A stretch of 64,000 bases of DNA from an archaeon (GCA_024275665.1 JAJRYS010000016.1:3050-67049); one strand, 5' to 3'. Positions 4,093 to 30,935 are shown, counted from the stretch's first letter. The notes: generated by a model from the letters alone, not told the origin. Numbers and translations: made by a program.

Positions 4093-5174
4093 TTCCCAAA
4101 CAGCCAGTCAACAACAGTCGTAGCATAACATCCTTTTGGAAGAGAAAAACGCAGCACGTAATAATGCTTACTGCATTCTTCCCCCTCCCCTATTATTTCA
4201 AAATCAGTTAATTCTATGAATAACTTTCTTCTCTTTCCTTTTGAACTTGCTTCAGGCATGCTTTTTATTCTAAAATCGCTTTGCTTTAGTCCTTCTTCTC
4301 TGAGTATTTCTTCTTCTAACTCGTTTTCAGGCTCTAACTCGTAACCGTATAATGGCCCTTCTTCTAGTTCTAATTCCTTTTCAATCACTCTTTCCAAGAA
4401 CTTGTTGAACAAGTAAGACTGGTAAGCATGGACGAACATTATTTTCAAAAACCGTGGTAGTTTCCTAAGTGCGCCTATAAAGTCATTAGGATGCTGTGAC
4501 AAGTGCGCTAGCATCATGCGCTCGAACTTTAATCCTTTTGGGAAGTATTGCAAGGCTTTTTTGAAATCCTCTTCTTCTACAAGCTTCTTCCTTGCTTGTT
4601 TTGCTTCTTCTGATTCTTTTTCAAAAACCTTGGTCAAGTAAATCATTACTGCTTCCTTGAAGTTCCCTTTCACAATCTCCTTGCCTACTAAGTGAGTTAT
4701 TGGCCTAACTCCTCCGAATCGTTGCACTCCGAAAAAATTAGGAATTCTTTTCTCTTCTCTTGGTGGTTTGTCTGAAAAGACTTTCAAAGTAAACCTATTC
4801 CCAAGCAAGTCACCTAGCTCTACTCTATCATCAGAATGATAAAGAGGCAATATTCTTGCGTCCCTTATGCTGATTTTTTCCAAGTCTTCTGGTTTTGCGT
4901 TCCAAATACTAATACGTTGAGTAGTCCATGCTTTCTTATCCTTCATACCAGCGTAGCCAATGCGTTTGCGTGAAACATGAAGCTTCTTAGCAATCTTGTT
5001 AATCAGTAACAAGTTGTCCCAGTTTTTCTTCTCAAGAAAGCATACTAAGTGCTCTCCCTTGCTTTTCTCATCAAACGCAGGACTAGAGCCGACCTCCAGG
5101 ATTTTGTCCTCTGGAGTAATCTCCTCTACTATGAAATCCTCTGCTGTTTTCTTAATAGAGTACATGACAATCAT
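4089..5174 (-). CDS. truD: tRNA pseudouridine(13) synthase TruD
   Basis: GMKDKKAWTTQ catalytic-Asp motif and FFGVQRFG motif of the TruD/Pus7 family. Confidence 0.75.
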   Translation of the reverse strand: MIVMYSIKKTAEDFIVEEITPEDKILEVGSSPAFDEKSKGEHLVCFLEKKNWDNLLLINKIAKKLHVSRKRIGYAGMKDKKAWTTQRISIWNAKPEDLEKISIRDARILPLYHSDDRVELGDLLGNRFTLKVFSDKPPREEKRIPNFFGVQRFGGVRPITHLVGKEIVKGNFKEAVMIYLTKVFEKESEEAKQARKKLVEEEDFKKALQYFPKGLKFERMMLAHLSQHPNDFIGALRKLPRFLKIMFVHAYQSYLFNKFLERVIEKELELEEGPLYGYELEPENELEEEILREEGLKQSDFRIKSMPEASSKGKRRKLFIELTDFEIIGEGEECSKHYYVLRFSLPKGCYATTVVDWLFGN

Positions 5175-7406: not shown

Positions 7407-8310
7407 GTGGCACTTTCAAATTTTCAATTAGTAGATATTTTTAATGATGAGTTAATTGAGACCAGAGTTAATAATGAATACTTGGATGAAAGGTTAAATG
7501 AAGGAATAAAAAATAAGAAAATTTCAGGAGAACAGTGGTTTAGAAATCCTCAAGATTGGTACTCGATAACAGCTTACGCCAATCCTTACAAGACTCCTTT
7601 TTCAGAGCTTAAGATTTTGTTAAAAGAACAAGAAAATCTCAAACCATTGTTAAAAAACACTCTGAAAATATTTTATGGAGTTGGTATAGGTGAGACAGAA
7701 ACAGTTCCTGTTGAATGGGATTTACAGGATAATAAGTACTCTGAAGTGATTGGAATAGATATCATTGAATTTTTTCATAAAAGGTTTTATTTACGGATTA
7801 AGAAATTTAGCTCAGGAATACCCTGATAGTAAGATTATGTTTAAAGGGATCAATGGTTTGTTTGAGGATTTAACAAGGGAAAATATTTTTCCTTCTAATT
7901 CTAAGTATGAAAAGTCTTCTCACATTTGCTTTGGCAATACTGTTGGTAATTTTGATCAAGAAGAAATATTTGGGATTTTTAATGATAATATGTTAAAGGG
8001 GGATTTGTTACTACTTGGAATACAACTTGCTTTTGATCCTGATAGAGTACTAAGACAATATGAGAGTAATAAAAGATTTGAAAAATTGCTGGTAAACTCT
8101 ATTAGTAAAAAACTGGAAATAAAGAAGATTGATTGGAAGTGGAACTCTGAGGAAGGTCAGATAGAAGCATGGGCTGGGGATATTTTAGTGTTTAGATCAA
8201 AAAAATATGATGAGGAAGAATTTGAAAATTTTGTAGAAAAACACTCATTTTTAATAGTGAAAAAATTTGTTGAAAGAGATGTTGCATTATACGTTATGAA
8301 AAAAGAGTAA
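7407..8310 (+). pseudogene. EgtD-like (Methyltransf_33) SAM-dependent methyltransferase, disrupted by a frameshift in a T6 run near 7775-7785
   Basis: Two overlapping ORFs in frames 0 and +1 join into VIGIDIIEFF|IKGFIYGLRNLAQEYP...; C-terminal GNTVGNF...DLLLLGIQLAFDPDRVL matches the EgtD motif LGSTIGNF...LLLGxD; region GC about 30%, against about 40% for its neighbours. Confidence 0.5.
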
Positions 8311-8314
8311 AGTA

Positions 8315-9229
8315 TTAATATGGTTTCTTCACTTCAACAAACTCATTAGGCAGTAGTATTGGCTTTTCGTAATTCTTCCAGTCGTCCAAGACTATTCGTG
8401 GGCAGGCAGTGATTACGAAAGCGTCGAAAGGAAGGTAGTCGATTCGTTCAGGAGTGATTTCGTTCATTATTACCAAGTAAGTGTTTTCATGTTCTTTGCA
8501 TAGCTTTTCAGCGAGTTGTAGTTGCTGTTGGCCTGGCTTCGTGCTTGCGATTACTCCGAACGTCTTAGCCTTGCTTGCTTTACTTATCCTAAGCCATTTT
8601 TCTTTCTCCCATTCCCCAGCGCTTACTTCTGTCACTTCCTCGTTGTACGGGTTTGCTTGGATTATTTTTTTCTTAGTAGTATAAGCTACCAGTAGTGGGT
8701 GGAATTTTCCAGAACCTATGAACAAAAAACAATCAACGTCGTTGGCAATGCTTGCAGCGCTTCCAGCATCACATCCCAGCACTTGCCCGTCGTACGTTGC
8801 TTTGTTCCCTTTTCTTCCTATTACTGCTCTCTTACCTTTGTTTTCTAGGAATTTTTTCACTTCATCAAGCTTGTGAATGTGCTGCACTGTGGTGACTAAT
8901 CCTACTTTTTCACAGAGAAAGTTAAGCGCTTTTTCAACTACTGTGATCACTTCCAAATCTGACCTTGTTTCTGCGTATATTACGTTCTTGTTTTCAAGCA
9001 TTTTTGAATGCCCGTAGTGCACTGTTAGGAACCCTGGGATTGTTTGAATGTCGCATGCTCCGTAACAAGGGTCTCCTGACAATGCTATTTCAGCATTTGT
9101 TTTTTCCTTTAACTCTTTCATGAGTTTTTCAGCGTACTGTTTTAAGCCTTCTGGAAGCTGAAGCAGGACTTTGCTTGCTTTTCTCTTCTTGATTTCTCCT
9201 ATTATCCTTTTTGTTTCAAAATCATACAT
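8315..9229 (-). CDS. dph2: Diphthamide biosynthesis enzyme Dph2 (2-(3-amino-3-carboxypropyl)histidine synthase)
   Basis: Colinear with Pyrococcus Dph2: KVLLQLPEGLK, YGACD, QVLGCDAGSA, FIGSGKFHP and VITACPR cysteine-containing motifs. Confidence 0.8.
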   Translation of the reverse strand: MYDFETKRIIGEIKKRKASKVLLQLPEGLKQYAEKLMKELKEKTNAEIALSGDPCYGACDIQTIPGFLTVHYGHSKMLENKNVIYAETRSDLEVITVVEKALNFLCEKVGLVTTVQHIHKLDEVKKFLENKGKRAVIGRKGNKATYDGQVLGCDAGSAASIANDVDCFLFIGSGKFHPLLVAYTTKKKIIQANPYNEEVTEVSAGEWEKEKWLRISKASKAKTFGVIASTKPGQQQLQLAEKLCKEHENTYLVIMNEITPERIDYLPFDAFVITACPRIVLDDWKNYEKPILLPNEFVEVKKPY

Positions 9230-9525
9230 TAGTCATTCACTTTTCCTATCATTGACAAGCCTAACAAGTTGAATGAGAAGAAGACTGCAAGTGCTTGCAA
9301 GTGCCATGGTCTCATACTTATCAAGTATCCTGTGTTCATTGAGTCAAAAATCCAGTACAAGACTACGAATTCCTGCAGTGCCAGGAAAGCGAATGCGATG
9401 GCAGCCCATTTGTAGAGTTTTATGTTTTTCTTTGAGTATTTTTCAACAAGCAAGACTGCTGTTGCTATGAAAATTATCATGTTCACGAAGCTTATGATGA
9501 AATAATAACCAAGCACGCCTATCAT
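9229..9525 (-). CDS. Small integral membrane protein (3 TM)
   Basis: Hydrophobic helices; start overlaps the upstream gene, stop abuts Dph2. Confidence 0.4.
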   Translation of the reverse strand: MIGVLGYYFIISFVNMIIFIATAVLLVEKYSKKNIKLYKWAAIAFAFLALQEFVVLYWIFDSMNTGYLISMRPWHLQALAVFFSFNLLGLSMIGKVND

Positions 9526-9528
9526 TTT

Positions 9529-9894
9529 TTAGCCCCTCATCCATCCTACTGCTATTGTCACGCTTAAATATCCTATTGTTATTATCATGTTTATTGATGC
9601 TTCAAGTTGAAGTGTTAAACTGTTTGTCAATGCCAATACTGCAGTGGTAGTGTAAGCAAGCGCTATTAATGCGAATCCTACTGTTCCGAATAGTATGTCT
9701 TTTTCTTTGAAGTACAAGTAAGTTCCTATTACGTAATACAGTAATGCCAAAGCGTTTAAGGCAAGCATTGTCTGAATTATTACAAGCATTAATCTATCTG
9801 TTGTGATTGTTTTTGTAAACAAAGTAGTGACTAATAAAACTCCTAATATCATGTTTCCTGCCAGCAATATTTTTCCAATGTGTTTTTCTATCAT
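9529..9894 (-). CDS. Small integral membrane protein (4 TM)
   Basis: Hydrophobic helices; 4-nt overlap with the KaiC-like ATPase gene. Confidence 0.4.
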   Translation of the reverse strand: MIEKHIGKILLAGNMILGVLLVTTLFTKTITTDRLMLVIIQTMLALNALALLYYVIGTYLYFKEKDILFGTVGFALIALAYTTTAVLALTNSLTLQLEASINMIITIGYLSVTIAVGWMRG

Positions 9895-10580
9895 TTGAAA
9901 AACTCCCTCACTCTTATCCTGGCATCAGGTGTGATGTTGAATTCTATCCAGTTCAATGGATGGTTAGTATTATGCATTCTTTCAATCTTAATAAACCTCT
10001 TGTCTTTCATTACTTCCATGTGAATAGTAGCGTCTGCCAAATAGTTTATTGTGAAGAATTGGGTTTTTTCATGGATCCCTTCTTCTAAGATTATCAAACC
10101 TATAGAATTTAGAGCGATTATTTTTCCTCTTAGCATTTGAAGGAACTTATAAACTGCTTTTTCGTTGTTGTAAAGAAGCAAGTCTGAGACAGAGTCAATG
10201 ATTACTACTCCTTTTTTGAAATTGTTTTCTTCTATTGCTTTTTTTATCAGCATGTTAAGCTCGTTAAGGTTGCTGAGGTTTTTCAAGGTGTATCCTTCCT
10301 CTTCTTTAGCATAAGAATAGCAATCTATGATTACAAGATTTTTGTCATCAGGGTTCATGCCGTATAAGCCCATTTTTTTTCTGAAAGCAAGGCTTGGCTC
10401 GTATGTCAGGATTAACAGTACTTTCTTTTTTTGTTTCAGCGTGTTGTTTATGAAGTTGAGGACAAAAGTTGATTTTCCACTTCCCGGATGGCCGTAAAGC
10501 AGGCTCATGCTTTCTTCTGGAAAGCCTCCTTGCATTAACTTGTCAAGCCCTTTTACTCCTGAACTTATTCGCATAACCAT
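9891..10580 (-). CDS. KaiC/RadA-like RecA-superfamily ATPase (single domain, about 229 aa)
   Basis: GLDKLMQGGFPE...LLYGHPGSGKST Walker A in the KaiC-like context; Walker B hydrophobic strand ending in D (VVIIDS). Confidence 0.65.
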   Translation of the reverse strand: MVMRISSGVKGLDKLMQGGFPEESMSLLYGHPGSGKSTFVLNFINNTLKQKKKVLLILTYEPSLAFRKKMGLYGMNPDDKNLVIIDCYSYAKEEEGYTLKNLSNLNELNMLIKKAIEENNFKKGVVIIDSVSDLLLYNNEKAVYKFLQMLRGKIIALNSIGLIILEEGIHEKTQFFTINYLADATIHMEVMKDKRFIKIERMHNTNHPLNWIEFNITPDARIRVREFFK

Positions 10581-13803: not shown

Positions 13804-13921
13804 GGGCCAGTAGCTTAGTCACTACGCTGGACTTTCACTTACCCTCTTTCAGCGTAGCTAAAATGGTTGGAGCACCCGACTGATAATCGGGAGGCCGAGA
13901 GTTCAAATCTCTCCTGGCCCA
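13804..13921 (+). tRNA. tRNA-Ile (anticodon GAU) with a roughly 40-nt intron at a non-canonical position in the D-arm
   Basis: Acceptor GGGCCAG/CTGGCCC plus discriminator A; intact anticodon arm CCCGA-CTGATAA-TCGGG; T-arm GAGAG-TTCAAAT-CTCTC; D-stem GCTT/GAGC interrupted by an insert that forms the helix CTACGCTG/CAGCGTAG; no encoded CCA. Confidence 0.6.
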
Positions 13922-23048: not shown

Positions 23049-23750
23049 TTGGAAAAACCGAAAATAGACTTAGTTGAGTTAGCTTCTCAGCCTGAATGGA
23101 AGGAAATGCTTTTCAACATTGTGAAAAAAGAAGGAATGGACCCATGGGACATTGACATTTCACTACTTACTTCTAAATTCGTTGAGCATGTTAATTCTTT
23201 GAAGAGAATGGATTTCAGAATACCTGCTAATGCAGTGCTTGCTTCAAGCATTCTTTTGAGGTATAAGTCTAATAACTGGAAGCTTTCCGAAGAAAGAGAA
23301 GAATATCCTCTCATATTCATTCCTGATGAAATAATACCAGAACCAGTGCCAATAGAGTTAGAGCCAGTGACTAGGATTACTAAGAGGAAAGTCACTCTCG
23401 AGGAATTGATCAATGCTATTGAGGACGTGATGAAAAAAGAGAAAAAAGCAGCTCAGAAGCACAAGCCTAAAAAACCTGAGATACCAACATCTATTCTCAA
23501 ACTCGTGAACGTTGATGAAGAAGATTTTGAAAGAGTGGAAGAAGAAGTCCTTCAGCGTATTATGAAAACCCTTGACAAGACCAGAATGACAGTATTTTCC
23601 AACATACTAAAAAGTAATACAACAGAAGAGGTCATATCAACTCTTGTTCCAGTGCTCCATCTTGCGCATAAGGGAAAGATAGTAATATGGCAAGAGGAAG
23701 TGTTTGGAGAGATATTCATACAATTAAACAGTGATGAGAATGCAAGCTAA
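23049..23750 (+). CDS. scpA: Segregation and condensation protein A (ScpA kleisin)
   Basis: N-terminal DPWDIDISLL motif characteristic of ScpA; 20-nt overlap with scpB. Confidence 0.7.
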   Translation: MEKPKIDLVELASQPEWKEMLFNIVKKEGMDPWDIDISLLTSKFVEHVNSLKRMDFRIPANAVLASSILLRYKSNNWKLSEEREEYPLIFIPDEIIPEPVPIELEPVTRITKRKVTLEELINAIEDVMKKEKKAAQKHKPKKPEIPTSILKLVNVDEEDFERVEEEVLQRIMKTLDKTRMTVFSNILKSNTTEEVISTLVPVLHLAHKGKIVIWQEEVFGEIFIQLNSDENAS

Positions 23751-24243
23751 GAAAATAGCAGAAGCAGCATTGTTCATGTCGCCAGAGCCTCTTACTGTTA
23801 ATGAAATAGTGAAAGTGACAGGAGTTGAGTCTGTACCAGTTGCTTTAAAATTAATAGAAGATTTAGTGAAAGAGTTCAACTCTAGAGATTCTGCTCTTGA
23901 AATAGTAAATGATAACGGGAAATATTTGATGAGAGTCAAGTAAGAGTACTTGAAGCACGTGTCGCACTTAGCAGTTTCCCCTGAATTCTCAAAAGCAGTA
24001 CTAAGAACGCTTGGATTGATTGCTTTGAAACAGCCGGTAAAGCAGTCAATAATAGTAAGCATAGTAGGCAACAAGGCATATGATTACGTGAACGAGCTTG
24101 TTTCAAAAGGATTTATCAAAGCGAAAAAACAGGGCAACACCAAGATATTAATGACCACTCCTAAGTTTGAGTCTTACTTCGGGAAGAAAACAAACGAGAT
24201 AAAGAAAATGAGCAAAGCTTCTTACCAAAGTACTTTACTTTGA
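23731..24243 (+). pseudogene. scpB: Segregation and condensation protein B (ScpB) interrupted by an in-frame TAA at 23941-23943
   Basis: Two same-frame ORFs (70 aa and 97 aa) correspond to ScpB winged-helix 1 (AEAALFMSPEPLTVNEI) and winged-helix 2 (LSPEFSKAVLRTLGLIALKQPVKQS...KILMTTPKF). Confidence 0.55.
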
Positions 24244-25425
24244 GTTATAATATTCTGTGATTACTTCTAACACGTCTTTGAAGCTAACCACTCCATTGGA
24301 AAGCATTTCTTCTAGAATGTTTTGTTTTTTCTTAATCTCCTTGTTAATGTCAGCCCTGCTCTTGCCGCATAGTTTTGCAAGTTCTTCAATCTTGCCGCTT
24401 GGGATGTTCGTGCTTTCCACTTTGTCAGTCTTGGCATTGTAAACAAACAACTCGCTGAAAGAAATACCAATCTCAGAACGTTGCACTTCAACTATTGAAC
24501 TCACTCTTCTTTTCAATCCTTCAGGAGACCTGATTTTTTTGCATACTATTATGAAATCCATTAAGCCAAGCATGTTCTTAGGAACGTTCATAGGAGGATT
24601 AGTCAAACGGGAAATGCACTCAGCAGGAGAATTAGCGTGAAGAGTTCCCATGGCAGAGTGCCCTACGTTCATGGCGTTGAACAAAGTCTCTGCTTCCGGC
24701 CCTCTCACCTCTCCTACTATTAGCCTGTCAGGTCTCATTCTCAAAGCATTAATGAGCAAGTCATTCATAGTAATGGCACGTGTGTTAGCAACAGCGTGCT
24801 TGCTTTCCATCCTCACGACGTTCTTTCTTCCGAAGAAATTCAATTCAAGAGTGTCTTCTATTACTACTATGCGCTCGTCTTTTGGGATGAAAGAAGTAAG
24901 AATGTTCAATAATGTCGTCTTACCAGCTCCTGCTCCTCCAATAACCAGAATGTTGAAAGGATAATTCCTCTCTCCTTCCACTGCTTCCCATAAGAAAGCA
25001 GCAGCCTCTGAAGACAATGTGCTGTTCTGAATGAGACTAACGATTGACAACGGGTTCTGCTTGAACTTCCTAATAGTAATAGTAGGACTGTTAGGAGTAG
25101 CAGGAGGAATAGTAGCGTTCAAACGAGAGCCGTCAGGCAAGCGAGCATCAAGGAAAGGCTTTTCCTCATTAATCACGTCACCTGCTTCCAAGGCAGCGTT
25201 GTTAATCCATTCTATTATCTCTCTTTCACTCATCACAAGGTTAGTTTCGCACATGCCATGCTTAGCATGATAAACAAATACAGGTTCTCCTGCTCTGTTA
25301 ACCATTATTTCTTCAAGCTCAGGGTCTTTCAAAAACTTTTCAATAGAAGGGTTCTTAACCTCATACTTGTAAAACCCTCTCTTCTTAGTAATCGTTGCCA
25401 TGCCTTTCATTACAATCCAATCCAA
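24235..25425 (-). CDS. VirB11/TadA/GspE-family secretion ATPase (type IV pilus or archaellum-type, short form)
   Basis: Walker A VIGGAGAGKTTLLN, Asp-box and His-box of secretion NTPases, about 396 aa. Confidence 0.7.
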   Translation of the reverse strand: MDWIVMKGMATITKKRGFYKYEVKNPSIEKFLKDPELEEIMVNRAGEPVFVYHAKHGMCETNLVMSEREIIEWINNAALEAGDVINEEKPFLDARLPDGSRLNATIPPATPNSPTITIRKFKQNPLSIVSLIQNSTLSSEAAAFLWEAVEGERNYPFNILVIGGAGAGKTTLLNILTSFIPKDERIVVIEDTLELNFFGRKNVVRMESKHAVANTRAITMNDLLINALRMRPDRLIVGEVRGPEAETLFNAMNVGHSAMGTLHANSPAECISRLTNPPMNVPKNMLGLMDFIIVCKKIRSPEGLKRRVSSIVEVQRSEIGISFSELFVYNAKTDKVESTNIPSGKIEELAKLCGKSRADINKEIKKKQNILEEMLSNGVVSFKDVLEVITEYYNSK

Positions 25426-25499
25426 TAAAAAGCTTTTGCAGGACTAATTGCTGAGTTTAAAGTTTTAAATATGTTGCAGGGTATAAGAAATTGATTGAA

Positions 25500-27305
25500 A
25501 TGGTTCGCAAGCCTAAGCATATTAGAATAAGTAGAGAATGGATGGAGTTACAAGCTCTTAGAGAAAGAGAGAAAGAAGAGGAGAATAAGAAAAAGATTCA
25601 AAGAGCATTGCAAGCTATTAAAAAAGCAAAAGAAATTGAGAAGCAATATTACAAGAAAAGAGGGATGGAAGAAATTGAAAAACTTCCAAGAGCGTTGCGC
25701 AGCGGCAGGAATTTGAAAAAAGTCCTTGAGCAGAAAGCAGAGCAACTGCTTGAGGAAGCCAGACGCAAGGAAGAAATGCTTGGGAAAGGAGCTTCTTTTG
25801 TTAATGCTTTCTTCGAGCCAAAAGGACCGATAGAAGTGCAAATTGGAAGACTGAAAAGGTTGAATGAAATTCTTGACAATGCTCTTAAAGAAGAAAGAGT
25901 AATGAAACAAGAGAGGAGGTTGGTTGAAAAGCACAGGAAGAAATCTTTGAGAATGATAAGTGGACTTGAAAAAGAGAATGAGAAATATTTTAAGATAATG
26001 CCAGAATTAAAAGAAAAAGTAGAAGAATTGAATAGGAAAGTGCTTACAGGAGAGATGAATCCAAGGAAAGTTGAGAAAGAACTTGAAGAAATTAGAAGGC
26101 TTCAAGAAGAAGCAAAAGAAAAAGCAGAACTAATTTTGGAAATTGATAAAAGAATTGTGAAAGCAGGAGGAGTTGGGATAAGACCCCCTGCAATAATAGG
26201 CAACAAAGATCTCACCAGACTGAATTTAGAAGAACTTAGAGGTTTGTTAGAATCTGCTGACAAGAAGATTAGGGAAAAACAGCTTGAAAAGCAACGCAAA
26301 GAAGAGGAAAGAGAGGAAAGAAGAAAACTAGCTAACAAGTTTAGAAAGTTGAAGGGGGATTATGAAAAGATCACTGGTAAAGAACCAGGCATAAGGATAA
26401 TAAGAGGGATTAGTTTAAAGGAATACAAGAGGATAGTTGAAGAGTTTGAAGCAAGAGTGGAAAAGGAAAAAGAGCTAGCTGAAGCGAGGAAAGCAAGAGA
26501 GGAGAAAATAAGGAAAATCAAAAAATTAAATGAAGAAATCAAGAAGTATGGAGGAGAGCAGTTAAAAATCACAATTCCCTCTGAGAAACTCTCACTCAAT
26601 GCTTTGGAACAAATAGAAGGAACAGCAAGGGAAAGATTGGAAGAAGCTAAAAAGATGAAAGAGAAAGAGGAAGAGATACAAAAAATAAAAGAAACTTTTG
26701 AAGAGATTAGAAAAATCGACGAGCACTTCAGAATAGGAAATCTCTTTGATGCTTCAAAACCTCTTTCAGAACAGTTGGAAATGCTAAGAAAAAAGAGAAA
26801 AGAACTGGAAGAAGAACTTAAAATACTGAAAAAAGAAAAAAGAGAAGAAATCAAGATGCTTATAAATGAAGGAAAAGTCCCGGAAATAAATGATACAGAG
26901 AGGAGTGCCAGGAGATTAGAAAAAGAGTTGTACCTTCCTGAAGAATTTTCTTTACCTGAAAACAAGAAAATGGAGAGAAGCAGGATTGAAGAAGAAGCAA
27001 TAGAAGAAAAACCAAAGGAAATTAAAAAAACAAAACAGGAAGAAAAATTAGAAATATTCAAGGCAGAGCATTCTCAAATAATAGGTGACTTGTTGTTCGG
27101 AGGAGGGAGGCTCTTTCAGGAGTTTGAAGAAATAGAAAATAGAGTAGCGAGAGGAGATATCTCTCCTAAAGAACTTGAAAAAAGATTAAAAGAATGGCTT
27201 AATAAAGTTGAAAAAAGAAAGAAGGGGAATAAGAAAAAATCAAAGAAAAAGAAATCTGGGAAGAAAGGGAAAAGAAAATCTTCAGGGAGAAAAAAGAGTT
27301 CCTAA
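25500..27305 (+). CDS. Very Lys/Glu-rich predicted coiled-coil protein (about 600 aa) with a poly-Lys C-terminal tail
   Basis: Uninterrupted 1.8-kb purine-rich ORF with heptad-like EEL/KKL periodicity; C-terminal KKGNKKKSKKKKSGKKGKRKSSGRKKSS; TATA-like TTTTAAATA about 30 nt upstream of the ATG at 25500. Confidence 0.5.
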   Translation: MVRKPKHIRISREWMELQALREREKEEENKKKIQRALQAIKKAKEIEKQYYKKRGMEEIEKLPRALRSGRNLKKVLEQKAEQLLEEARRKEEMLGKGASFVNAFFEPKGPIEVQIGRLKRLNEILDNALKEERVMKQERRLVEKHRKKSLRMISGLEKENEKYFKIMPELKEKVEELNRKVLTGEMNPRKVEKELEEIRRLQEEAKEKAELILEIDKRIVKAGGVGIRPPAIIGNKDLTRLNLEELRGLLESADKKIREKQLEKQRKEEEREERRKLANKFRKLKGDYEKITGKEPGIRIIRGISLKEYKRIVEEFEARVEKEKELAEARKAREEKIRKIKKLNEEIKKYGGEQLKITIPSEKLSLNALEQIEGTARERLEEAKKMKEKEEEIQKIKETFEEIRKIDEHFRIGNLFDASKPLSEQLEMLRKKRKELEEELKILKKEKREEIKMLINEGKVPEINDTERSARRLEKELYLPEEFSLPENKKMERSRIEEEAIEEKPKEIKKTKQEEKLEIFKAEHSQIIGDLLFGGGRLFQEFEEIENRVARGDISPKELEKRLKEWLNKVEKRKKGNKKKSKKKKSGKKGKRKSSGRKKSS

Positions 27306-27346
27306 GGTTTTTAAACAAAAAACTTCATATTTAATGTAACTGTATA

Positions 27347-28696
27347 ATGATAACGGCGGTGATTGTGGTGGGAGTGAGGGATTATCTTAAGAAGAAAAAA
27401 AAGTTGAAAAGAGAGACAGTAGGGATTGGTAAGATTTCTGCTGTTGGTATGAGAATGTCCAAACTTAAAGCATTAAAAACAGCAAAAGAGTTGGGCATTG
27501 ACATAAGCAAATATGGCAGGTTTGCTACTGTTACTGATATTAAAAAAGATATAACTTCTAAGATTAGAGAAAATGAGAAGAAAGTGCAAGAAGGTAAAAT
27601 GAGGAAAGCAAGAAAAATTGCTAGGGAAATGAAAGAAGAAGAGGAGTTGTTTGAAAAAATTGTGCAAAAGGCTGTTAAAGAAGGAGAAGAGAAAGTAAAA
27701 AGAAAGTATGGTGAAAGGGAAAGAGAGATAATAAGAGAAAAAGAAGAGATGGCTAAAGAATTTGAGAAAATAAAAGCAAAAGCCAAGAATGGTAAAAAAC
27801 TCACTAGGGAAGAACTTAACTTCTTCAGGAAGTATTATTCAAGAATGGCTGGAACTCCTTCTGAAAAGAAATCATTAGAAAGGAGAGTTAAGAACATAGA
27901 AAAAAGGATTAATAAGCTTATTAGTGAGGAAAAGAATAAAGGAGTTAAAGGAGATATATTTGCCCAACTCTTAAAACAAGGCAAGATAAGCGAAGAGGAA
28001 ATCAACCTGCTCAATGAGTACTATCAACAAGCTGGAGGAGCTAAGTTCATAACAAGAGTAAATGTTGCTCCTGAGTTGAAGGATATGATTTATAGTGGAA
28101 AAGCCGCGAAGATTACTGGAAGAGTACCAGAAGTTAACATTGAGGACTTTGAAATAAGAAAAGGAGAGAGAATAATATTCCATCCAATGCAACAGCCAAT
28201 GATGGCTAAATTAAAAAACCTTGTAGAGAAAAGAGACTCTCTTAAAGAAAGAAAACAAGCTCTGAAGGAGCAGATTAAGAAGTTAGAAGAGTTTGGAAGA
28301 TACTCTGACCTTGAAATTGCGAAAAAGAAATTAGATGAAGTTGAAGCAAGAATAGATGAAATGAAAGAAGAAATAAAATATTATCATAAATTAGCAGAGG
28401 AGGAAGAGAAAGAGTTTGAAAGAAGAAAAAAAGAGGAATTAAGAAAAGAAAAAGAAAAGCTTAAGAAAGAACGTGAGAAAGAGCTTCAGAGACAGGCAAT
28501 GCTTAGAAAGAAACAACAGATAAAGGAGACTAATGAAAAAATTAAGAAAATAAAGGAAGAGTTGAAAGTTCTCAGAAGCCCTAGAAAGAGAATTGAAATG
28601 AGGATCAAGGAAGGAGATATAAATCAGAGAATAAGAGAACTTGAGAATAAACTCAGAGAAGAGAAGAAGATATTAGAAGAATTACAAAAAGCATAA
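27347..28696 (+). CDS. Lys/Glu-rich predicted coiled-coil protein (449 aa)
   Basis: Long uninterrupted ORF with a short N-terminal hydrophobic segment (ITAVIVVGV) then charged helical repeats. Confidence 0.5.
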   Translation: MITAVIVVGVRDYLKKKKKLKRETVGIGKISAVGMRMSKLKALKTAKELGIDISKYGRFATVTDIKKDITSKIRENEKKVQEGKMRKARKIAREMKEEEELFEKIVQKAVKEGEEKVKRKYGEREREIIREKEEMAKEFEKIKAKAKNGKKLTREELNFFRKYYSRMAGTPSEKKSLERRVKNIEKRINKLISEEKNKGVKGDIFAQLLKQGKISEEEINLLNEYYQQAGGAKFITRVNVAPELKDMIYSGKAAKITGRVPEVNIEDFEIRKGERIIFHPMQQPMMAKLKNLVEKRDSLKERKQALKEQIKKLEEFGRYSDLEIAKKKLDEVEARIDEMKEEIKYYHKLAEEEEKEFERRKKEELRKEKEKLKKEREKELQRQAMLRKKQQIKETNEKIKKIKEELKVLRSPRKRIEMRIKEGDINQRIRELENKLREEKKILEELQKA

Positions 28697-28743
28697 ACCT
28701 TTCCCTTCCTTACTTTCTTTACCCTTTCATTGGTGTTAAATAG

Positions 28744-28959
28744 TTGTTGATCATGTTGAAGGAGAGAAGAAAACTCAAGGAAAAAGCAAGAAAAATAGAA
28801 TCTCCTTACAAACCTTATTGGACTAAAGAAAGAATAAGAACAGAGATTAATTTAGTTGAAGCAGCAAGAGAACTCAAGAAAAGTATTGAAGAACTTCCTG
28901 AAAATGAAAGGAAAAAAATTTTAGAAAAACAGAACATTAATCTATCAGTTCTAGAATAA
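28744..28959 (+). CDS. Small Lys/Glu-rich helical protein (71 aa); may continue through the TAA into a TM tail
   Basis: Charged helical ORF; the same frame continues after the TAA as ...KKKKIFLAGGGGGASVPSVSAEGLEVIIRIALIGLAVLVVLYFLSSLF to 29157. Confidence 0.3.
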   Translation: MLIMLKERRKLKEKARKIESPYKPYWTKERIRTEINLVEAARELKKSIEELPENERKKILEKQNINLSVLE

Positions 28960-29164
28960 ATAAGCAAGCAACAAGAAATTAATGAAGAAGCACTAAAAAA
29001 GAAAGAAAAAAAGAAGAAAATCTTCCTCGCAGGTGGAGGCGGAGGAGCAAGCGTTCCTTCAGTGAGTGCAGAGGGCTTGGAAGTGATTATCAGGATTGCT
29101 TTGATAGGCCTGGCAGTGCTTGTAGTGTTATACTTCTTATCCTCCTTGTTCTAATGAATTGAAT

Positions 29165-30238
29165 TTAGTCAGCGAACACTGCTTTTACTACTTCTTCGTA
29201 AGGAGCATTCGTGCGTATCCCTTGTCCTGTGAAGTGAGTGCGAGTAGCCTTGAAACCCTTTTCCTTCAACGTTTTCAGAATTTCTTCTCTTTTCCTGACC
29301 TTCTTCTTGTACTTCTTGGCAAGAGAAGGCAGGTCGTAGTAAGGAGTTGTTATTGAGTAATCCTCTTCTGTTAGTGGATTAAATTCTCCTAGCCTGCCAA
29401 TCCAAGTAGGCCCGAGGATGACTGCTTTTTTCCCACACTCGCATCCAGTGCTAACATCTGAATTAATTGGAATGAGTTCTCTTCTCTCACAAGCAGGACA
29501 GTACTTCACGAACCCTATTTCTTTCAGTTTTCTGTTTGCTGTTTTTCTCCCTCCCTTGATTTCTACGAATGCGCGGTAGTAGTGAATATGAGAGTAAGCG
29601 AACACAGGACGCGTGAAGTAATCATGCTTTCCAGCTTCTCTCATTATTACGTAAAGCAGGTTTCTTAACCCAAGCTCGTGGAGGAAGCTGGTTCTTGTTG
29701 CTTTCAAAGCATACCTGCGAGCGCATGCAGTGAAGTAAACTCCTGAAAGAGTGCCAGTATCAGTAGCAGTAACAGCTAACAATGATCCATTGGGGTTCAA
29801 GGCAGTGACAGCGTTTGCAAGGAAGCGTATTGGAGAGCCGAAGGGATCGATGTCTACCAAGTCGAATTTCTCTCTCTTGTTATCCACTAGAAACTTGTTG
29901 GCTTCTTCGTTGCTCGTTCTGATTTTCACGTTGTTAAGTTCAGCGTTTTTCTCCACAAGTCTCACAGCGCTTGGCTGCACGTCGTTAGCCCATACTTCCA
30001 CGTTTTCAAGCTCGTTAGCATATCTGACTGCTCTTGCTCCCACTCCACTAAGCAAGTCAAGTATTTTCGGTTTTTCTTTCCCGTCTTTTCTGAAGTAATA
30101 CTCAGCAATGGTTATTGAAATGCTTCTGTTTTTCTCCATTGCAGGGTTGAAGAACACTGCGCCTTGGCTTGGTTTTTCCAAGCACTCTGCAGGCACTAGT
30201 AACTTTGTTTTGCCTTCAGTGATTTCTTTTAGTTCCAT
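29165..30238 (-). CDS. trm1: tRNA (guanine26-N2)-dimethyltransferase Trm1
   Basis: Trm1 family signature (LDLLSGVGARAVRYANE, DIDPFGSP) and a C-terminal Cys-rich zinc-binding domain. Confidence 0.85.
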   Translation of the reverse strand: MELKEITEGKTKLLVPAECLEKPSQGAVFFNPAMEKNRSISITIAEYYFRKDGKEKPKILDLLSGVGARAVRYANELENVEVWANDVQPSAVRLVEKNAELNNVKIRTSNEEANKFLVDNKREKFDLVDIDPFGSPIRFLANAVTALNPNGSLLAVTATDTGTLSGVYFTACARRYALKATRTSFLHELGLRNLLYVIMREAGKHDYFTRPVFAYSHIHYYRAFVEIKGGRKTANRKLKEIGFVKYCPACERRELIPINSDVSTGCECGKKAVILGPTWIGRLGEFNPLTEEDYSITTPYYDLPSLAKKYKKKVRKREEILKTLKEKGFKATRTHFTGQGIRTNAPYEEVVKAVFAD

Positions 30239-30278: not shown

Positions 30279-30935
30279 ATGTTAGTGCTTGGAATTGATG
30301 AAGCTGGGAGGGGCCCAGTAATCGGCCCAATGGTAATAGCAGGAGTTCTTCTTGATGAAGAAGCAGAAGAAGAGTTTAATCTCTTGGGAGTGCGTGATTC
30401 CAAGCTCTTAAGCCCTAAGAAGCGTGAACGCTTGGCGAAGGAGATTAAGAAGAAAGCAGTAGAAGTTCAAGTGATTAGTGTTCCTGCTGCTGAGATTGAC
30501 AAAGCCCGTAAAAGGATGAGTTTGAACGAGATAGAAGCTGCTAAAATGGCCTTATTGCTTAAGAAGTTCAAAAACAAGCCTGAAAAGATAATCATCGATT
30601 TGCCAGACCCTACTGGTTTTGCTTTAATCAAACGCATTTCAAAGTATGTTGACTTGAAAGCAGAAGTAATAGCAGAGCACAAAGCTGATTCCAAGTACGT
30701 TGCGGTTGCTGCTGCTTCTATTATTGCAAAGACTGAAAGGGACAAGGCTGTTGAGAGAATTTCAAAAGAACATGGTGAAGTGGGAAGTGGTTACCCTTCA
30801 GACCCGAGAACTGTTAAGTTTTTAGAAAAGCACAAGGAAGAAGAGATGAAGTTCGTGCGTTACAGCTGGAGCACTGCCCGCAGGATTCTTGGCAAAAAAA
30901 AGGAAAAGAAGCAAGCAAAATTATTTGACTTTTGA
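30279..30935 (+). CDS. rnhB: Ribonuclease HII
   Basis: LGIDEAGRGPVIGPMV catalytic DEDD-fold motif, archaeal RNase HII length. Confidence 0.85.
   Translation: MLVLGIDEAGRGPVIGPMVIAGVLLDEEAEEEFNLLGVRDSKLLSPKKRERLAKEIKKKAVEVQVISVPAAEIDKARKRMSLNEIEAAKMALLLKKFKNKPEKIIIDLPDPTGFALIKRISKYVDLKAEVIAEHKADSKYVAVAAASIIAKTERDKAVERISKEHGEVGSGYPSDPRTVKFLEKHKEEEMKFVRYSWSTARRILGKKKEKKQAKLFDF

Follow-up and report, generated by a model that had tools for sequence, protein, structure and literature searches.

Lysine- and glutamate-rich helical orphan proteins encoded in a variable chromosomal slot of an archaeon

What is encoded, if anything, by long reading frames so heavily loaded with lysine and glutamate codons that they resemble low-complexity DNA? 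The question is raised by a 64,000-nucleotide stretch of archaeal DNA (GCA_024275665.1 JAJRYS010000016.1:3050-67049; hereafter the window, with positions counted from its first nucleotide), in which three consecutive open reading frames (ORFs), ORF1 to ORF3, lie between the gene for a PilB/FlaI-type secretion ATPase and trm1. An original prediction, generated by a model from the sequence, had described their products as extremely Lys/Glu-rich coiled-coil proteins that could be cytoskeletal, chromatin-associated or surface tethers. We find that ORF1 and ORF2 genuinely code for protein, that their products, for which the databases searched hold no homologue, are predicted to be strings of long amphipathic helices, and that they occupy a chromosomal slot in which related species carry other charged proteins.

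Coding status of the three reading frames

The positions and Lys/Glu-richness originally given for the three ORFs were checked and hold, and NCBI annotation covers all of them, as proteins of 601, 449 and 68 amino acids (aa).

25500..27305, plus strand: ORF1, 601 aa from ATG 25500 (the NCBI form) or 604 aa from TTG 25491
27347..28696, plus strand: ORF2, 449 aa
28753..28959, plus strand: ORF3, 68 aa from ATG 28753 (the NCBI form) or 71 aa from TTG 28744, ending in TAA 28957-28959

Lysine and glutamate together make up 37.6% of ORF1, 36.1% of ORF2 and 35.2% of ORF3, rising to 47.4%, 44.8% and 45.1% when arginine is included. ORF1 (19.5% E, 18.0% K, 9.8% R) has a net charge of +40 and a pI of 9.7, and ORF2 (19.6% K, 16.5% E, 8.7% R) a net charge of +41 and a pI of 9.8; for comparison, the mean composition of 11 conserved neighbouring genes is 10.1% K, 10.5% E and 4.9% R. 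The dominance of GAA, AAA, AAG and GAG codons claimed by the original prediction is evident, these four together with AGA accounting for 454 of the 1055 codons.

A purine-rich non-coding tract or tandem repeat was considered as an explanation and is ruled out by frame-specific stop avoidance, a strong period-3 signal and the lack of real repeats. The reading frame contains no internal stop in either gene, compared with 51 and 59 stops in the other plus-strand frames of ORF1 and 44 and 54 in those of ORF2. The longest plus-strand ORF reaches 604 codons, as against 77 ± 16 and a maximum of 154 in 500 dinucleotide-preserving shuffles, a length that, as had been argued, a non-coding purine tract is not expected to produce. 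Period-3 power was 8.4 for ORF1 and 7.8 for ORF2, compared with 0.7 ± 0.4 in shuffles, and is comparable to that of the conserved neighbours (9.0 for the ATPase gene, 5.2 for trm1). T is scarce at codon position 1 (0.10-0.11, versus 0.20-0.26 at positions 2 and 3), and synonymous choice for K, E, R, L, I and G agrees with that in the neighbouring conserved genes. TRF and repeat searches of the DNA returned only trivial low-complexity purine runs, and the only antisense ORFs are S/F/L-rich shadows, as previously noted. We conclude that the ORF1 and ORF2 frames genuinely encode proteins, and that low-complexity Lys/Glu-rich ORFs of this kind can be called coding with confidence from sequence statistics alone.

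Both genes are also preceded by a candidate promoter, identified by consensus match:

25464..25471, plus strand: TATA-box-like TTTAAATA, 28 nt 5' of ATG 25500, a perfect TTTAWATA match; candidate ORF1 promoter, with a short or absent leader
27310..27317, plus strand: TATA-box-like TTTAAACA, 29 nt 5' of ATG 27347; candidate ORF2 promoter

A TATA spacing of 28-29 nt is the usual archaeal distance for short-leader transcripts.

Orphan status and predicted structure of ORF1 and ORF2

The original prediction had named two observations that together would speak against it: a codon-position signal indistinguishable from that of a purine-rich repeat, and a lack of conservation in relatives. The signal is strong against shuffled sequence, as described above; sequence conservation, by contrast, was found neither in relatives nor in the databases searched. 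For the whole ORF1 and ORF2 proteins, no Pfam family matched at E ≤ 0.01, and at E up to 10 ORF1 gave no match and ORF2 two noise matches far under their cut-offs; ESCRT-III/CdvB, CdvA, PspA, trichohyalin and other Pfam helical families gave no match at the gathering threshold. Ten sub-segments of the proteins, searched against profile libraries, returned sub-threshold noise only. The only NCBIfam rows were composition-driven ones for ORF2 residues 288-448 (NF045487 at 19.6 bits and TIGR02168 at 15.9 bits, with cut-offs of 300 and 567), PHROGs gave best E-values of 0.015-0.08, and sequence searches of the PDB gave nothing above noise. With ORF2 as query, a word-indexed search across 5.8 billion clusters recovered ORF2 only, and an exhaustive phmmer search of 1.84 billion cluster representatives with both proteins again returned ORF2 itself and nothing else. 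Viral contigs, phage genomes and plasmids (IMG/VR, INPHARED, PLSDB) held no relatives of either protein. No paralogy is detectable between ORF1 and ORF2, neither has a paralogue elsewhere in the window, and a literature search found nothing on such proteins in DPANN archaea. The database entry for ORF1 sits in a 90%-identity cluster headed by unrelated fragments of 39-54 aa (MALG.D.VTIT…), a clustering artefact that hides it from representative-based searches.

AlphaFold2 models, computed from single sequences, predict both proteins to be nearly all helix without a confident global fold. The ORF2 model (mean pLDDT 75, pTM 0.27) comprises helices at residues 62-147, 282-316, 319-410 and 422-448, with residues 233-281 at low confidence, while the ORF1 model (mean pLDDT 67, pTM 0.33) comprises about 13 helices, the longest spanning residues 110-183 (74 residues), joined by linkers of 7-16 residues. 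Across the two proteins, helices of 25-90 residues are split by short Gly/Pro-containing linkers. Foldseek searches of both models against the PDB returned generic long helices that were non-significant (best E 0.06 and 0.44, TM-scores ≤ 0.2). The helical nature of the proteins, as originally proposed, is thus what the models predict.

Core hydrophobics account for approximately 27-29% of residues in ORF1 and ORF2, so most of the helices are probably amphipathic rather than single alpha-helix (SAH) domains. Each protein has one SAH-like stretch of about 30 residues (ORF1 254-283, ORF2 350-379), and the enrichment of E to K/R pairs at i+4 is weak (0.075 versus 0.059 ± 0.007 in ORF1; 0.062 versus 0.054 ± 0.008 in ORF2). 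A heptad-like a/d pattern is seen in 11-14% of windows of 28 residues, compared with 1% in shuffles, and is confined to separate segments of 30-77 residues (ORF1 153-204, 267-307, 340-370, 386-452 and 539-575; ORF2 157-194, 283-359 and 382-449). A global periodicity of 3.5 residues was not significant, its power being matched by 27 of 200 shuffles for one protein and 20 of 200 for the other. The coiled-coil description therefore stands for individual segments, which exceed shuffles, but not as a continuous heptad register.

The repeated motifs reported earlier were not borne out: KKLNEEIKK and LEEAKKMKEKEEEIQKIKE occur once each, and neither protein has internal repeats beyond those in shuffles. 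A helix-start motif, G-[DEK]-[IM]-[STN]-x-x-E, is found twice in each protein, at some of the helices that follow linkers; its definition is post hoc, and it is reminiscent of generic capping boxes. A link of the related 'GEIS..E' motif to SHOCT or GvpG was rejected, as A proteins of related species (described below) match the GvpG C-terminus at a sub-threshold E of ~1e-3 and the window segments do not match at all, and we treat the motif as a generic helix-capping one.

Two terminal features singled out by the original prediction are present. ORF1 ends in a lysine-rich tail:

27213..27302, plus strand: C-terminal 30-residue poly-Lys/Ser/Gly tail of ORF1, KRKKGNKKKSKKKKSGKKGKRKSSGRKKSS, its last residues in low-confidence (pLDDT < 50) AlphaFold2 segments

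ORF2 begins with the hydrophobic stretch MITAVIVVGV (ten residues; coded 27350-27376) followed by KKKKK, a start that is too short to span a membrane. Neither protein contains a transmembrane segment, the KD19 hydropathy maximum being 0.72 in ORF1 and 0.71 in ORF2, and by inspection none of the three proteins has a signal-peptide-like hydrophobic N-terminus. A regex scan of ORF1 and ORF2 detected neither Walker motif (A or B), which, together with NCBIfam scores far under the cut-offs, agrees with the earlier statement that they are not SMC-like. From these data, ORF1 and ORF2 are predicted to be soluble, strongly basic polyampholytes built as strings of long amphipathic alpha-helices.

The slot between the ATPase and trm1 genes

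The three ORFs lie in a slot with conserved genes on both sides:

24235..25410, minus strand: left slot boundary, PilB/FlaI-type secretion ATPase gene (T2SSE, PilB3_C), divergent from ORF1
29165..30238, minus strand: right slot boundary, trm1 (tRNA guanine-N2 dimethyltransferase), convergent with ORF3
30279-30935: rnhB, beyond trm1

The surroundings include genes for type III RuBisCO, a KaiC-like ATPase, scpA, scpB, a thermosome subunit and several aminoacyl-tRNA synthetases, and the window is archaeal core chromosome. The closest relatives of the ATPase, at 57-73% identity, belong to metagenome-assembled genomes labelled Candidatus Micrarchaeota or Candidatus Iainarchaeum, and these labels lead us to infer a DPANN archaeon as the host.

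When genomes and metagenomes were scanned with the ATPase as seed, 47 loci (designated by L numbers) were obtained, none above 73% identity. The KaiC-ScpA-ScpB-ATPase block is kept in about ten species, and trm1-rnhB stands on the other side of the slot, as in the window, in L001/L020, L004/L022, L006 and L023. In five to six related species the slot contains between one and six genes rich in K/E/R, all on the ORF1-3 strand, and in most species at least one slot gene encodes a C-terminal membrane anchor. The slot of L001 holds a single K/E/R-rich gene (134 aa, tail-anchored) and a CopG/RelE-like pair; those of L004 and L006 hold two or three genes, comprising an 'A' protein, a transmembrane tail, and a 'B' protein with its own transmembrane tail; and that of L023 holds six genes (107, 158, 175, 143, 290 and 239 aa), including two local paralogue pairs, with the last two proteins tail-anchored. 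An A gene and transmembrane tail are also present in L003, L021, L026 and L005, on truncated contigs. A tblastn search of ORF1, ORF2 and ORF3 against all 47 loci gave no match. What is conserved is thus the slot, its strand, the composition of its products and mostly a C-terminal anchor, and what is not conserved is sequence. We conclude that the ATPase-trm1 slot is a fast-evolving, hypervariable charged-protein locus, and that a chromosomal slot can keep the type of its product (charged, helical, often tail-anchored) while sequence similarity goes.

Within the slot, the relatives' proteins form families of their own. The B proteins (L004 3103-3942, L006 7962-8726 and L023 5450-6169, all on the minus strand) share a conserved N-domain of about 70 residues (…RYEEIF..T.QLI.QG….KQAAEAL.KVTDYS…APEDIKRKL), joined by a long linker rich in K/E to a C-terminal transmembrane helix, and match one another at E 2e-27 to 5e-24. 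Their N-domain matched neither Pfam nor, as a profile, the PDB, and a tblastn search of B against the whole window gave a best E of 0.68, so that the domain was not found there. The A family (L021_A, L004_A), characterized by a C-terminal GFFR..KK.IFG, gave no BLASTP match to ORF1 or ORF2 at E ≤ 0.05, with shuffle Z-scores of 0.5-2.2. A motif of the form G-[DE]-I-[ST]-x-x-E does occur twice in each of ORF1, ORF2 and L021_A; like the helix-start motif above, it was defined post hoc and is generic-looking. In L023, positions 7934-9132 (minus strand) encode the tandem paralogues of 158 and 175 aa, which are extremely K/T/E-rich and share the end …KQRVKDTP.EIERKKKRKS..VERDSPWW, pointing to local duplication within the slot. 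In L001/L020 the CopG-like/RelE-like toxin-antitoxin pair lies at 9464-9949, between the tRNA-Ile gene and the ATPase gene, in the variable region of the slot.

ORF3 was originally listed as an ORF of 71 aa. It is not a complete gene, as its frame resumes after the TAA and runs into a C-terminal transmembrane helix:

28960..29154, plus strand: same-frame continuation of ORF3, ISKQQEINEEALKKKEKKKKIFLAGGGGGASVPSVSAEGLEVIIRIALIGLAVLVVLYFLSSLF, 64 codons followed by a stop at 29152-29154
~29083-29151, plus strand: predicted transmembrane helix of the ORF3 tail, its last 23 residues (KD19 2.84)

The continuation ends 10 nt before the end of trm1, and at the matching position in L001/L020, the closest relative, trm1 is abutted by the intact 134-aa gene, which encodes a charged N-terminal part and a C-terminal transmembrane helix. 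When ORF3 and its tail are compared with the L001 protein, only the transmembrane tails align (full-length Z 3.9, soluble parts ~0), so the correspondence is one of position and architecture; the L001 protein is itself an orphan, for which we found no relatives or annotation. By its sequence, ORF3 is the charged front part of a gene for a tail-anchored membrane protein of about 135 aa, disrupted by a single in-frame TAA. Reassignment of TAA was considered and ruled out, as TAA terminates 26 of the 52 long ORFs in the window. Since it is the commonest genuine stop there, the TAA of ORF3 is a point lesion or a consensus error. The scpB gene (23725-24243) likewise has an in-frame TAA, at 23941-23943 ('YLMRVK*EYLKHV'), within 5 kb of ORF3; the closest relative reads Lys at this site, and every relative match examined is continuous there. 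This second A-to-T-type nonsense lesion within 5 kb points to genome erosion or to consensus errors in a metagenome-assembled genome, and the in-frame stops are a caution on the quality of this assembly.

The immediate surroundings of the ATPase gene also differ among relatives. A tRNA-Ile(GAU) gene lies directly upstream of the ATPase gene, beside the slot, in eight relatives and 11.5 kb away in the window, a displacement that implies a rearrangement at the ATPase/ORF1 junction. In the window copy (13804-13921), tRNA positions 17 and 18 are separated by an insert of 43 nt (13821-13863), at a site not canonical for introns; this tRNA gene was missed by ARAGORN, and Rfam matched just 13854-13914. 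No pilin or platform gene was seen beside the ATPase gene in the window. Just upstream of the ATPase orthologue in L007 is a gene (4170-4598) whose N-terminus resembles that of archaeal type IV pilins (MRKGISPVVAVVLLIAIAVIAAVAV…), a hint that ATPases of this family may serve a pilus-like apparatus.

A proposed role at the membrane face and its alternatives

We tentatively propose, with somewhat less than even confidence, that ORF1 and ORF2 are fast-evolving, lineage-specific helical spacers or scaffolds at the cytoplasmic face of the membrane. Both proteins would reside in the cytoplasm at the inner membrane face, where a tail-anchored partner of the ORF3 type could recruit them, its charged part lying on the presumed cytoplasmic side of the anchor. 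Basic surfaces, namely the poly-Lys tail of ORF1 and the hydrophobic-then-KKKKK start of ORF2, may in addition make electrostatic contact with anionic lipids or nucleic acid. On this reading selection would favour charge, helicity and length over the exact sequence, and the rapid loss of similarity would be accounted for. The tether part of the original prediction gains some support from the C-terminal anchors of ORF3 and most syntenic genes; ORF1 and ORF2 themselves have no anchor. A surface location is unlikely, given that inspection revealed no signal-peptide-like N-terminus and hydropathy no membrane-spanning segment in ORF1 or ORF2. If a membrane-proximal charged layer or tether of this kind exists, it would bear on the organisation of cytoplasm and envelope in such ultra-small cells. 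The tiny genomes of DPANN archaea are full of unannotated genes, and in this orphan-rich lineage we regard the pair as a well-characterised orphan of a familiar protein kind rather than as a discovery.

Several observations weigh against a membrane-face role, which we have inferred. ORF1 and ORF2 have no anchor of their own, the sole anchored gene in the window carries an interrupting stop, and the tail anchor of ORF3 exists only if the TAA at 28957-28959 is disregarded. The AlphaFold2 models derive from single sequences, with pTM just 0.27-0.33. Neither BLASTP comparison of all against all nor shuffle Z-scores convincingly tied ORF1 or ORF2 to the syntenic genes; as no similarity connects them, a shared origin is presumed only from where the genes lie and from their composition. 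Furthermore, both genes are missing from the closest relative, whose ATPase is 73% identical, indicating that they are dispensable there.

Among known systems, ORF1 and ORF2 appear most like charged helical spacer and tether proteins (SAH/ER-K domains and tail-anchored tethers), by analogy and as members of neither class. SAH domains are described in PMC5812594 as rigid connectors or spacers. ORF1 and ORF2 resemble the SAH/ER-K domains of myosin-6/10 and caldesmon in their very high E/K/R content and long predicted helices, but differ in that their helices are mostly amphipathic with weak i+4 enrichment and that they lack flanking functional domains for a spacer to join. Eukaryotic tail-anchored tethers with long helices (golgins; plant PICC/PICL) are described as a general class in PMC4707255 and PMC3581476. 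The charged, largely helical cytoplasmic body and single C-terminal transmembrane anchor of these tethers recur in ORF3 with its tail and in the relatives' syntenic proteins; in contrast, there is no sequence relationship, the archaeal host has no endomembranes, ORF1 and ORF2 are unanchored, and the anchored window gene is only about 135 aa and stop-interrupted.

The likeness to other helical proteins is more limited. Bacterial coiled-coil-rich proteins (CCRPs; crescentin, FilP, Scy, Ccrp) and archaeal CdvA are likewise helical proteins of low complexity, restricted to particular lineages and not easily detected by homology; unlike them, ORF1 and ORF2 have no continuous heptad register and no Pfam or NCBIfam match. 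ORF2 residues 288-448 weakly match the coiled-coil arms of SMC, Rad50 and ASRP (archaea-specific SMC-related protein) by composition, but neither ORF1 nor ORF2 has Walker motifs, a hinge or an ATPase head. Finally, the C-terminal 30 residues of ORF1 are K/S/G-rich and partly of low confidence, as in linker-histone-like lysine-rich tails, whereas ORF1 lacks a globular winged-helix domain and the tail constitutes 5% of the protein.

For the cytoskeletal and chromatin roles suggested by the original prediction we found no supporting evidence, and both were weighed together with two further explanations. ORF1 and ORF2 could be nucleoid- or nucleic-acid-associated proteins whose basic helices and H1-like ORF1 tail coat or bridge DNA or RNA, possibly with ScpA/ScpB. 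We consider this unlikely: the net charges of +40/+41 and pI values of 9.7-9.8, the 30-residue K/S/G tail and the presence of scpA-scpB 1.3 kb away are what such proteins would lead one to expect, but acidic residues are nearly as many as basic ones, profile searches recognised no DNA- or RNA-binding domain, and the scp genes lie beyond the ATPase gene in the opposite orientation. The B proteins of relatives, with an N-domain of about 70 residues, a charged linker and a transmembrane anchor, would suit a nucleic-acid role, yet their domain is absent from the window and without a PDB match, and some syntenic proteins are acidic (L023_290, pI 5.2; L006_A2, pI 4.8). Classical cytoskeletal filament formation in the manner of bacterial CCRPs (crescentin, FilP, Scy) seems distinctly improbable. 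Although the long predicted helices and heptad-like segments of 30-77 residues are in its favour, heptads occupy just 11-14% of windows with an insignificant global 3.5 periodicity, Gly/Pro linkers break the helices every 25-90 residues, and neither a family match nor a significant Foldseek match (best E 0.06 and 0.44) was obtained.

The remaining two explanations concern the slot itself. The slot may be a site of tolerated turnover of charged ORFs, in which ORF1 and ORF2 are young or eroding, lineage-specific and functionless. The lack of a homologue in the databases searched, the absence of both genes from the closest relative, a slot gene number that varies from 1 to 6, and the in-frame TAA codons in ORF3 and conserved scpB are all consistent with decay. 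Clean frames of 601 and 449 codons beside other frames that stop about every 8-12 codons, a period-3 signal and codon use resembling those of essential genes, an amphipathic helix design far above shuffles, and promoter-like boxes at the proper distance argue the other way, and we regard functionless ORFs as rather improbable. Least probable of all, in our judgement, is that a mobile element or virus inserted at a hot spot beside a tRNA gene carries the genes as cargo. Such cargo is suggested by the tRNA-Ile(GAU) between the ATPase and the variable genes in eight relatives, the CopG/RelE-like toxin-antitoxin pair in L001/L020 and the variable gene content, but in the window the tRNA is not at the slot, no direct repeats flank it, and its ORFs of at least 50 aa are only ORF1-3 and antisense shadows, which leaves no room for an integrase gene. 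Moreover, no relatives were found among PHROGs or phage, plasmid and viral-contig sequences, and codon use is the same as that of the host. Helical spacers or scaffolds at the membrane face remain our preferred reading.

A bolder reading, which we consider highly improbable, is that the slot is a dedicated, rapidly diversifying DPANN locus for membrane-anchored charged helical rods, in which recoding uncouples the tail from the body. In the window an in-frame UAA stands between body and tail. The A-gene body of two related species terminates in frame 0 (…GFFR..KK.IFG*), and there the +1 frame runs on to a K-rich segment and a transmembrane tail. This junction could be a +1 frameshift site (a UUU-to-UUC slip before CGN) or could mark a separately translated small transmembrane peptide. 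If the frameshift or readthrough were programmed, each gene would give soluble and membrane-anchored isoforms of a tether to the nucleoid or to partner cells. The junctions lie at ~320-345 in L021 and at ~4224-4260 in L004, both on the minus strand, and are also present in L003 and L022; L021 and L004 keep TTT-TTT-CG(T/A) there. CGN Arg codons are rare in the window's own genes, and in L021 a TTG start overlaps the stop of the A gene.

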